Below are positions 3,861 to 59,893 of a stretch of 64,000 nucleotides of DNA, in pieces. Numbering within the stretch: the first letter of the stretch is position 1; each line of letters begins with the position of its first letter. The notes below the pieces were generated by a model, which did no database searches, was not told where the DNA came from, and worked only from the letters and a program-made list of their open reading frames with translations. Source of the DNA: Armatimonadota bacterium (GTDB taxonomy: Bacteria; Armatimonadota; SYMT01); assembly GCA_041690135.1 (NCBI GenBank), contig JAWLHY010000002.1, positions 160,001 through 224,000 of the forward strand, given 5' to 3'. Made by a program: the position numbers and the translations under genes.

Positions 3861-4043
3861 GGCCGAACACCTGAACACGCGAGCACCTGAAAACCCGACG
3901 AGCCTTCCAACTTGCTAACCTGCAACTCGGATCCCGTTTCGCCAACACGTACCCGTTACCGACAACAGGGGTCCCCAACCTTTAGCCCCCGAGGGGGGCT
4001 TCAACTTTCAACCTGCCAACTTTCAACCTGCCAACCTTCAACT
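3861..4043. repeat. Short tandem repeats (CCTGAACA-type octamers, TTCAACC-type heptamers) with an embedded 19-nt hairpin
   Basis: GCCGAACA CCTGAACA CGCGAGCA CCTGAAAA; TTCAACT TTCAACC TGCCAAC...; TTTAGCCCCCGAGGGGGGC at 3981-3999. Confidence 0.75.
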
Positions 4044-31779: not shown

Positions 31780-31856
31780 GCAGGTTGGAAGGTTGAAAGT
31801 GGAAGGTTGAAGGTTGGAAGCGCCCCTCGGGGGCCAGGGGGTGAAAGCTGGAAAGC
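31780..31856 (-). repeat. TTCAACC-type heptamer repeats with a diverged hairpin insert
   Basis: GGTTGGAA GGTTGAA AGTGGAA GGTTGAA GGTTGGAA followed by GCGCCCCTCGGGGGCCAGG. Confidence 0.6.
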
Positions 31857-32146: not shown

Positions 32147-32214
32147 AGCCGACGCAGGTTTACGCCCCGAGGGGGTGTCGGCTTTGCCGTTTGTAGCCGC
32201 GAGTTCACTCGCCC
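32147..32214 (+). repeat. REP-like double hairpin carrying a nested 19-nt insert
   Basis: AGCCGACGCAGG[TTTACGCCCCGAGGGGGTG]TCGGCT...GTAGCCGCGAGTTCACTCGCC; an uninterrupted relative lies on the minus strand at 59628-59677. Confidence 0.7.
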
Positions 32215-32242
32215 AGCCGAAGCGTTTGTTCCCTCGCATTCC

Positions 32243-36316: not shown

Positions 36317-36386
36317 ACTTCAACCTTTAGCCCCGAGAGCTTCAACCCTGCCCCCGAGGTAGGACTATTTGGCCTCCCTCACAGCA

Positions 36387-37109: not shown

Positions 37110-37192
37110 AGTCAGGTGTTCGGGTGGTCAGGTGTTCGGGTGGTCGGCCCCCTGTGGGGGGGTAAATGTTCGGGTGGTCAGGCGGTCGGGTG
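37110..37192 (-). repeat. Octamer repeats (CCCGAACA/CCTGACCA) with a 19-nt hairpin insert
   Basis: Insert TTTACCCCCCCACAGGGGG at 37148-37166 (minus strand). Confidence 0.75.
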
Positions 37193-39786: not shown

Positions 39787-39952
39787 TTAGGGGCCAGGGG
39801 TTGGGGGCCAGGGGTCGGGGATTAGTGGTTGGGGCTTAGGGGCCAGGGGTTAGGGGCCGGGGGCTATACTTATGCCTGAACATTTACCCCCCACAGGGGG
39901 GCCCGAATACCTGAACACCCGAATACCTGAACACCCGAATACCTGAACACCC
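39787..39952. repeat. Heptamer (GTTAGGG/GCCAGGG) and octamer (CCCGAATA/CCTGAACA) tracts with a 19-nt insert
   Basis: About 11 heptamers at 39787-39863; CCTGAACA[TTTACCCCCCACAGGGGGG](CCCGAATACCTGAACA)x3. Confidence 0.85.
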
Positions 39953-51845: not shown

Positions 51846-51916
51846 CTCCCGGACAAGGATTCGAACCTCGATTCACGGCTCCAAAGGCCGCTGTCCTACC
51901 ATTAGACGATCCGGGA
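51846..51916 (-). tRNA. tRNA-Gln (anticodon TTG)
   Basis: TCCCGGA acceptor stem, D-arm GTCTAATGGTAGGAC, anticodon loop CTTTGGA, T-arm CGAGGTTCGAATCCTTG. Confidence 0.95.
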
Positions 51917-52016
51917 CCGCCGGAGCCCGTAAGCCCCGTGCCCAACCAGTATACCTGCCGGCCCGTCTCCACGCAAGTCCGCACCGGCAATTGATCCATT
52001 CTGGTAGACACCATCA

Positions 52017-52053
52017 AACATAGCTGGGCGATCCATCATCGCCCAGCTATGTT
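52017..52053 (-). terminator. Hairpin terminator after the DUF892 gene
   Basis: AACATAGCTGGGCGAT-CCATC-ATCGCCCAGCTATGTT. Confidence 0.75.
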
Positions 52054-52103
52054 CAGACGCCCCAGGGGGTGTTCCCACCGCCTGGATAGATCCTACGTCG
52101 GGC

Positions 52104-59731: not shown

Positions 59732-59862
59732 CCTGAACACCCGAACCCCCGAATATTTACGCCCCACGGGGGTGCCCGAACGTTTACCCCCCATAGGGGG
59801 GCCTGAACGTTTACCCCCCACAGGGGGACCTGAACGTTTACCCCCATAGGGGGGCCTGAACA
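59732..59862 (+). repeat. 27-bp tandem array made of an octamer plus a 19-nt hairpin, 4 units
   Basis: CC(C/T)GAA(TA/CG) alternating with TTTACGCCCCACGGGGGTG / TTTACCCCCCATAGGGGGG / TTTACCCCCCACAGGGGGA / TTTACCCCCATAGGGGGG. Confidence 0.9.
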
Positions 59863-59893
59863 CCGGCGGACGGGACGTCCGCGCTCCCAACGC

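Follow-up and report, generated by a model that had tools for sequence, protein, structure and literature searches.

To our knowledge, tiny mobile repeats have been described chiefly in one cyanobacterial family, and no mechanism is known by which they move. Elhai et al. reportedly described such repeats in 2008 (Genome Res 18:1484) as the small dispersed repeats (SDRs) of Nostoc punctiforme, which are said to be 21-27 nt long, intergenic, nested in heptamer and other repeats and apparently mobile without a known enzyme. Short accounts of the SDRs of N. punctiforme and its relatives are found in PMC5861425, PMC2884548 and PMC3116915, which treat them briefly. Sections of Di Nocera et al. 2013 (PMC3733652) and Quentin et al. 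2018 (PMC6006769) that deal with REPs give these a length of 20-40 bp and a hairpin with a conserved unpaired GT[AG]G (or CGTC) at its foot; for the 'short REPs' of subclass 2.5, 10-13 nt are listed there. The GTAG-23 REPs of Thermomicrobium roseum, according to a passage in PMC3733652, lie within small palindromes that are also present as hundreds of empty copies. For IS200/IS605 elements, parts of PMC5027513 and PMC6006769 outline that a single strand is excised as a circle and integrated 3´ of a short specific single-stranded sequence without duplication.

The unit described here consists of a 4-base tag, a 6-bp G/C stem and a 3-base loop, in total 19 nt. It ranks among the smallest apparently mobile pieces of DNA, a kind that has so far been described mainly in Nostoc-type cyanobacteria. 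Like the SDRs, as far as their reported description goes, it is a short dispersed repeat that is nested in heptamer and other repeats and is present or absent in otherwise similar sequences. It differs from the SDRs, again compared by description, in its length of 19 nt, in its occurrence in a 65% G+C genome of another phylum and in the loops of REP hairpins beside RAYT genes, and furthermore in its defined target motif on the 5´ side and in the co-variation between bases 1 and 4 of the tag.

With REPs the unit shares a short G/C hairpin that has an unpaired tetranucleotide at its 5´ foot, the high copy number and the extragenic location, and its tag and stem together measure 10 nt, which is inside the range of the short REPs. 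However, the tag is TTTA, CTTG or CCTG and never of the GTAG type, the 19 nt fall just under 20-40 bp, the unit sits as a singleton in other repeats and not as an inverted doublet, and free units flank none of the RAYT genes. The lack of target duplication, the strand-specific hairpin and the insertion 3´ of a short sequence resemble IS200/IS605 elements as portrayed in parts of PMC5027513, PMC3201880 and PMC5934647; those elements, however, are described there as about 0.7-2 kb long with tnpA and separate left and right end hairpins, whereas the unit is one hairpin. The unit is a variant of the SDR/REP kind, real, well defined and informative on target and structure, for which we infer the mechanism.

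Census and genomic distribution

The assembly surveyed comprises 9.10 Mb in 25 contigs with 65% G+C, and the window, which is the whole stretch of 64,000 nucleotides analysed here, corresponds to C2:160001-224000. The genome was searched with four consensus forms, allowing up to two edits each and using the reversed strings as controls. Variant v1 (TTTACCCCCCACAGGGGGG) gave 50 matches, v2 with an ACA loop (TTTACGCCCCACAGGGGTG) 56, v2 with a GAG loop (TTTACGCCCCGAGGGGGTG) 58 and v3 (TTTAGCCCCCGAGGGGGGC) 24, compared with 0, 0, 0 and 2 for the respective reversed strings. Merging the matches of the four forms resulted in 153 loci scattered across 22 contigs, with 82 on the plus and 71 on the minus strand; 83 of them match exactly, 29 with one edit and 41 with two. 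The length is 19 nt at 136 loci, 18 nt at 11 and 20 nt at 6, counts that lean towards 19 as they come from fuzzy matching. A subfamily with the tag CCTG (CCTGGCCCCCGAGGGGGGC) has 39 regex matches genome-wide, 36 of which lie within heptamer arrays, bringing the total to about 190 copies (153 plus about 36). In the window, the pattern TTTASSCCCCN{2,6}GGGG has 8 matches at 7 sites, compared with 0.03 expected from 100 shuffles.

According to a crude gene call based on GC3, 134 of the 153 copies are intergenic, and the remaining 19 lie mostly in 5´ extensions of over-long ORFs. The spacers that hold copies are co-directional in 78 cases, divergent in 28 and convergent in 27, in line with the total spacer lengths, and relative to co-directional neighbour genes 43 copies have the same orientation and 35 the opposite one. 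Given this orientation and this split between spacer types, the unit acts neither as a terminator nor as an operon-linked signal. An intrinsic terminator was rejected on the basis of the same orientation counts and of the sequence order, with TTTA placed before the hairpin and, on the other strand, TAAA after it. Orientation relative to the local GC skew is divided 60 against 82, the skew being too weak to call a replication-strand bias.

Among 40 relatives (none of the same genus), the unit pattern had 1 single match, which does not exceed the controls, and the exact 19-mers of v1 (TTTACCCCCCACAGGGGGG) and of v2 with the GAG loop (TTTACGCCCCGAGGGGGTG) had 0 matches among other species-representative genomes. 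A degenerate 19-mer matched 115 loci in metagenome contigs, one match each and none related to this genome; the loop spectrum of these matches is unlike that of this genome and places them at chance level. Of the Rfam families, one tRNA alone matched in the window and none at the unit.

Copies in the window

All full copies listed in the preliminary description are present. Four of them form an array on the plus strand with a period of 27 nt, the length of one unit plus one octamer (59756-59854; units of 19, 19, 19 and 18 nt). Three host units of the octamer type (CCTGAACA, CCCGAACC and CCCGAATA; 59732-59755, plus strand) are located 5´ of the first unit, which is a v2 copy (TTTACGCCCCACGGGGGTG; 59756-59774). 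The other three are v1 copies: TTTACCCCCCATAGGGGGG at 59783-59801, a copy with the last G changed to A at 59810-59828, and an 18-nt copy with one C missing at 59837-59854. Each of the four units is followed by a single octamer of the CCYGAACR type on the same strand (59775-59782, 59802-59809, 59829-59836 and 59855-59862), and the array ends with a REP (GGCGGACGGGACGTCCGCGCTCC; 59865-59887, plus strand), which also flanks the RAYT gene of locus L007. The REP cognate to this RAYT (GGCGGACGRGACGTCCGCGCTCC) is found at 59865-59887 and at 24 other places in the genome. Octamer units lie up to 40 nt before it in 12 of 25 strict copies, and the octamer arrays may be part of a composite with this REP.

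The other full copies are distributed over different hosts. At 3981-3999 (plus strand), a v3 unit (TTTAGCCCCCGAGGGGGGC) is located in a heptamer array between CCAACC and TTCAAC. The v1 consensus (TTTACCCCCCACAGGGGGG) lies at 39883-39901 (plus strand) between CCTGAACA and CCCGAATA, and a further v1 copy (TTTACCCCCCCACAGGGGG) in an octamer array at 37148-37166 on the minus strand. The latter has 7 C and 5 G; its C run is one base longer and its G run one base shorter, with the result that the next octamer is one base short, as had been noted before. At 32159-32177 (plus strand), a v2 unit with a GAG loop (TTTACGCCCCGAGGGGGTG) sits in a REP hairpin, at the 3´ edge of its GCAG loop. This host REP belongs to family H3 (AGCCGAC GCAG G..TCGGCT TTGCCGTTTGTAGCCGCGAGTTCACTCGCCCAG; 32147-32216, plus strand), which has empty copies at other places in this genome as well as in two related genera. 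As had been claimed, the hosts in the window are of different kinds, namely heptamer arrays, octamer arrays and the REP-type hairpin at 32147-32216, and what had been called a REP-like hairpin is a member of true RAYT-associated REP families.

Of the three stretches proposed as eroded copies, the one at 36326-36340 (plus strand) is a decayed v3 copy in a heptamer array (TTTAGCCCCGAGAGC). The stretch at 31820-31838 (minus strand), also in a heptamer array, is not eroded but belongs to the CCTG-tagged subfamily (CCTGGCCCCCGAGGGGCGC, one mismatch), and the one at 52053-52071 is doubtful. This unit-like stretch adjoins a hairpin near a tRNA gene: after the gene (51846-51916, minus strand, 61.2 bits) comes a long perfect hairpin (catagctgggcgat...atcgcccagctatg) within 52010-52075. 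The CTTG and CCTG tags and the 5´ target motif reported below go beyond the preliminary description.

Filled and empty host sites

Clustering the flanks of the 153 copies revealed at least 10 unrelated host contexts. These include CCYGAACR octamer arrays, CCCAACG-type arrays and (C)TTCAAC heptamer arrays, arrays of CACGAAGA and of CGCCAAGA, CGCAAAGA repeats, a CCGCCAAAC...CGTACC element, a GATGTAGG...GCRGG element, a CTCTCCC...GGGAGAGG hairpin element and two large groups of REP-type elements, H2 and H3. The sharing of one unit by so many unrelated contexts agrees with the earlier claim that it is inserted into varied repeats.

To find paralogous empty sites, the joined flanks of each copy were searched genome-wide, and a clean alignment of at least 25 nt on each side was required. 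An empty site was found for 73 of the 153 copies, one of the 73 being a self-match across a tandem pair. In the best pair (C1:420762 filled, C3:94883-94740 empty), the two sites are 94% identical over 144 nt and the alignment has a single gap of 19 nt, located in the loop of GTGCCGGC GCAG GCCGGCAC. The preliminary description had stated that removal of the unit leaves no target duplication, and this was upheld except for one ambiguous base: the bases at positions -1 and 19 are identical in 111 of the 153 copies, so that absence of duplication cannot be distinguished from an 18-nt unit with a duplication of one base.

Furthermore, we used host-anchored profiles, made from the 45 nt that follow the insertion site on its right side and therefore independent of the unit sequence, and searched them genome-wide. 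Only members with an aligned 5´ end were counted, which left 51 for H2 and 73 for H3. The H2 members are empty in 25 cases, filled in 19 and classed as 'other' in 7; for H3 the corresponding numbers are 43, 19 and 11. The length between the loop and the 3´ arm in H3 is 0 in 42 members, 19 in 16, 20 in two, 18 in one and 34-35 in two, which are compounds; of the rest, six have a GTA-loop variant and four have odd values or could not be scored. The fixed length claimed earlier is therefore seen both in the genome-wide motif search (136 of 153 copies with 19 nt) and in these host-anchored inserts, which are 0 or 19 nt long (18-20). An earlier scan for any 6-bp stem followed by GNAG, an insert and the second stem arm was swamped by background, whereas the named stems and the host-anchored profiles were informative.

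The inserts of the host-anchored set are near-identical, while the host flanks are about 58-67% alike; in the set chosen by similarity, the units are about 98% alike, again with flanks at 58-67%. Eight stem subfamilies were distinguished, each of which has both filled and empty members. Taken together with the findings below on target sites and related genera, the filled and empty sites establish the unit as a discrete insert that is younger than its hosts, confined to this lineage and site-selective.

Arrays made of the unit plus one host repeat are found at C4:298030-298130, C6:139424-139478, C3:574129-574199 and in the window at 59756-59854, with periods of 25, 27, 35 and 27 nt, respectively, and up to 5 copies. 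They look like the result of repeated insertion at neighbouring target sites or of tandem duplication. Head-to-tail pairs are present at C3:703990 and C7:378762, where a TTTA-tagged unit is followed by a CTTG-tagged unit with zero host bases between them.

Target site choice

The insertion motif is R-A-S-R, located 5´ of the unit. An A is found at position -3 in 140 of the 153 copies and in 84 of 96 distinct contexts, and a T at position -1 in one copy only (of the 153). In REP hosts the unit is placed at the 3´ edge of the GNAG tetraloop. The octamer arrays contain it in a single phase and a single orientation, and no reversed unit was found in them. Selectivity is also visible among the units of the arrays: ACCA ends 100 of 611 array units and is followed by 0 inserts, whereas AACG ends 48 of the 611 yet precedes 12 of 24 v1 copies. 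The other variants have preferences of their own, with v2-ACA after AACA in 18 of 24 copies, v2-GAG after NAGG in 35 of 44 and v3 after AACC in 11 of 13.

Hairpin structure and tag

Two pairs of the stem differ between the variants. At pair 5:19, v1 and v2 have C:G where v3 has G:C; at pair 6:18, v1 has C:G and v2 has G:T, a pair that holds on the TTTA strand only. When v2 was folded as DNA, the TTTA strand formed six pairs with -4.0 kcal/mol and the bottom strand four pairs with -3.0 kcal/mol. To judge from this pairing pattern, selection evidently keeps the hairpin on the TTTA strand.

The tag was tallied on 95 v2 cores, the reversed control giving 3 cores. TTTA was found 75 times, CTTG 13 times, CTTA and TTTG 0 times, and seven other tags once each. 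On v3 cores the tags are TTTA (13), CTTG (4) and CCTG (24). The first and the fourth base of the tag thus co-vary; the tag counts could also have been produced by shared descent of the CTTG and CCTG copies.

Candidate enzymes

A search with the PF01797 profile identified nine places in the genome. Three of them are intact IS200-type Y1 genes (R1-R3; 144, 156 and 144 aa; 77, 74.5 and 57.8 bits with a cut-off of 55), which are located at C11:209659-210000, C1:627841-628185 and C2:54557-54895. Four genes pass the RAYT model with 104.2, 87.7, 102.7 and 83.0 bits (cut-off 80), a fifth stays just below it with 76.2 bits, and the ninth place is a 77-aa fragment. The intact-looking Y1 genes number 8 in total (3 of the IS200 type and 4-5 RAYTs); Y1 genes other than the IS200-type ones are located at C1:749332-749616, C9:14121-14351, C23:493-765, C14:178027-178233 and C1:1172517-1172786. 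As stated in the preliminary description, no Y1 transposase gene is present within the window; the nearest one is at C2:54557, outside of it. No domain of the TnpB type was found in the genome. The genome is unusually rich in Y1 HUH genes, and most of them have their own flanking REP family, representing several REPtrons.

The possibility of a TnpA or RAYT gene flanked by the motif, raised earlier, was checked, and free copies of the unit were seen beside none of the Y1 genes. H2 REPs lie on both sides of R1: an empty one downstream and, upstream, two filled ones that hold a CTTG-tagged unit in one case and a TTTA-tagged unit in the other. These two units lie within 350 nt of R1 and inside its H2 REPs, a family that is anyway filled in 19 of 51 members. 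At the other 8 Y1 loci examined, no unit was found beside the gene. R3 is flanked by empty H3-type REPs, the flanks of R2 are unique, and each RAYT has its own REP family. With this gene content, it is plausible that the unit could be mobilised by one of the Y1 enzymes of the genome.

Related genera

The H3-type hairpin (GCCSRC GNAG G YSGGCTT) was tallied in this genome and in two other genera of the same family. This genome has 26 empty hairpins and 8 that are filled with the 19-nt unit. In relative G004, all 6 hairpins are empty and none carries an insert. In relative G005, 56 are empty and 4 are filled, at the same site, with a different tagged hairpin of 20 nt, TATAGCCCC(C/T)G(T/C)A(T/C)GGGGGC, whose tag is TATA, with T and A at positions 1 and 4. 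Since the hairpin is empty or differently filled in the two relatives, the host is older and the units were added later, and the counts argue against the empty sites being deletions. The habit of insertion at the H3 loop site, as the three tallies show, is found in more than one genus of the family, the units themselves having diverged.

Tagged hairpins of G005 were also observed inside GGCAGAA heptamer arrays, where the unit has a TTTA tag (TTTACCCCCCGAACGGGGGG), and in REP loops after GNAGG (TATAGCCCCCGTAYGGGGGC). The loci are L136 (C4:84077), L139 (C42:10997), L135, L138 and L141.

Origin and spread of the unit

We lean towards the interpretation that the unit is a very small non-autonomous insertion element which moves as single-stranded DNA with the help of a Y1 HUH transposase of this genome. 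Insertion would have occurred on many separate occasions and with no duplication of the target, 3´ of R-A-S-R, the targets being the GNAG loops of REP hairpins and one fixed phase of the octamer or heptamer repeats. A Y1 enzyme would cut both junctions and rejoin the unit into targets exposed as single strands. The features of the unit fit the single-strand chemistry of IS200/IS605. Against a Y1 enzyme are the presence of one hairpin only, the lack of a Y1 gene flanked by free units and a tag that differs from the GT[AG]G of canonical REPs. The Y1 elements known so far carry a hairpin at each end, as in IS200/IS605, or are thought to move as REP doublets, and we know of no precedent for a single 19-nt hairpin as a Y1 substrate.

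It might also be that the unit is a true insert that has spread without a transposase of its own, by a few founding events followed by proliferation of the hosts (REPs by RAYTs, arrays by slippage) and by gene conversion. We consider this unlikely. The variant does correlate with the type of host, with GAG-loop v2 in REPs, ACA-loop forms in octamers and v3 in heptamers, which also fits spread together with the hosts or gene conversion, and the arrays of unit plus repeat with periods of 25-27 nt (59756-59854; C4:298030-298130) resemble tandem duplications. The filled copies of H2 are mildly clustered on a tree of their hosts (11 changes for 20 filled copies; shuffles: mean 14.7, range 10-19). 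Those of H3, however, are scattered like random labels, with 19 changes for 20 filled copies (200 shuffles: mean 17.4, range 12-20). Both trees were built on the host sequence alone and are weak with about 90 nt, and on these weak trees there is no sign of a single filled ancestor behind the filled H3 copies. Spread with the hosts is furthermore difficult to reconcile with eight stem subfamilies that are each both filled and empty, with units about 98% alike between flanks of 58-67%, near-identity being seen in the host-anchored inserts as well, and with an A at -3 that is common to at least 10 unrelated host contexts.

Quite unlikely, in our opinion, is mobility by a route other than HUH Y1, such as RNA and reverse transcription, or repair or replication that copies the hairpin into nicked loops. 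Such a route would account for a unit with one hairpin instead of two and for the lack of a Y1 gene flanked by free units, and no mechanism is known for the nearest known elements, the cyanobacterial SDRs, either. However, the absence of duplication, the strand-specific hairpin, the short 5´ motif and the hairpin-loop targets are marks of HUH single-strand transposition as set out in parts of PMC5027513, and the genome is unusually rich in Y1 genes.

Another explanation is that the hairpin is original to composite REPs and arrays, the empty sites being precise deletions, or that it is a functional module under selection, for instance a protein site or an RNA structure. The compensatory changes that keep the stem would agree with a function, and palindromes are prone to deletion. 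This explanation is nevertheless very unlikely: the hairpin is empty in 6 of 6 cases in G004 and in 56 of 60 in G005, the rest there having a different unit, and the hosts are mutually unrelated and far less alike than the units. A function in expression is also not supported by the gene context, since there is no bias in gene orientation (43 and 35 copies) and the intergenic types are occupied in proportion to their length, nor by a T run after the hairpin on either strand or by an Rfam family. Chance similarity or an assembly artefact, conceivable for a 25-contig assembly of an uncultured organism, can practically be dismissed with 153 copies on 22 contigs against 0-2 in the controls and 8 matches in the window against 0.03 expected.

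Three further candidates from the known types of elements were considered. An excision scar of a larger IS appears unlikely, as no long element bounded by halves of the unit was seen by inspection; matches of the TTTACGCC type without the closing G run are scattered in apparently unrelated sequence. A classical MITE would combine terminal inverted repeats and a target-site duplication; at the junctions of the unit there is no duplication beyond the one ambiguous base. A miniature derived from IS200/IS605 does not agree with the single hairpin, with the unique flanks of R2, with R1 and R3 being flanked by REPs and not by IS ends, or with the lack of TnpB.

Returning to the favoured transposition of single strands by a Y1 enzyme, the tag offers a tentative extension of it. 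TTTA, CCTG and CTTG are DNA type II tetraloops, in which, as described in part of PMC9975016, residues 1 and 4 close the loop with a Watson-Crick pair. No stem flanks the tag in the chromosome, and the tag would cap one only if base 19 were joined to base 1 in a circle of 19 nt. The 19-nt unit might be a transposable element complete in itself, moving in the form of a covalently closed single-stranded mini-dumbbell, its stem capped by the triloop and the tag, with Y1 cutting after R-A-S-R and after base 19. This proposal, which we regard as doubtful, is based on the three tags being type II tetraloops, on the absence of CTTA and TTTG among the 95 v2 cores and on the TATA tag in G005, which keeps T and A at positions 1 and 4. 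Folding the unit as a circle with nearest-neighbour parameters gave -2.6 to +0.3 kcal/mol; since the model has no term for special tetraloops, these energies are neutral for the dumbbell idea. If true, the mini-dumbbell would be the smallest known transposon and would provide a natural role for loops of the minidumbbell type.

The unit is a tractable case: its sequence is well defined, its target motif is clear, empty and filled host sites are numerous, a related genus has a sister unit, and eight single-strand transposases are candidates for its movement. Its mechanism is thereby testable with oligonucleotides and purified proteins. If a single 19-nt hairpin transposes, the lower size limit of transposable DNA drops. 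Such transposition, if true, would also account for the layered mosaics of REPs and tandem repeats in bacterial spacers.

Other intergenic repeats

A second family of micro-hairpins, (C)CG GGTACCC(A/G)C N2-5 G(C/T)GGGTG, has 84 copies genome-wide, compared with 0 in the reversed control. Examples are found in the region of C2:1050078, at C1:835525 and at C5:182222; none has been verified within the window. This hairpin nests in several REP families and also inside the 19-nt unit, generating compounds of 34-35 nt such as TTTACGCCC-GGGTACCCGC..GCGGGTGT-GGGTG. With a strict regex, 131 tandem arrays of the octamer type and 139 of the heptamer type with at least 3 units were counted genome-wide, and the load of intergenic tandem repeats of 7-8 nt is very high for a genome with 65% G+C.
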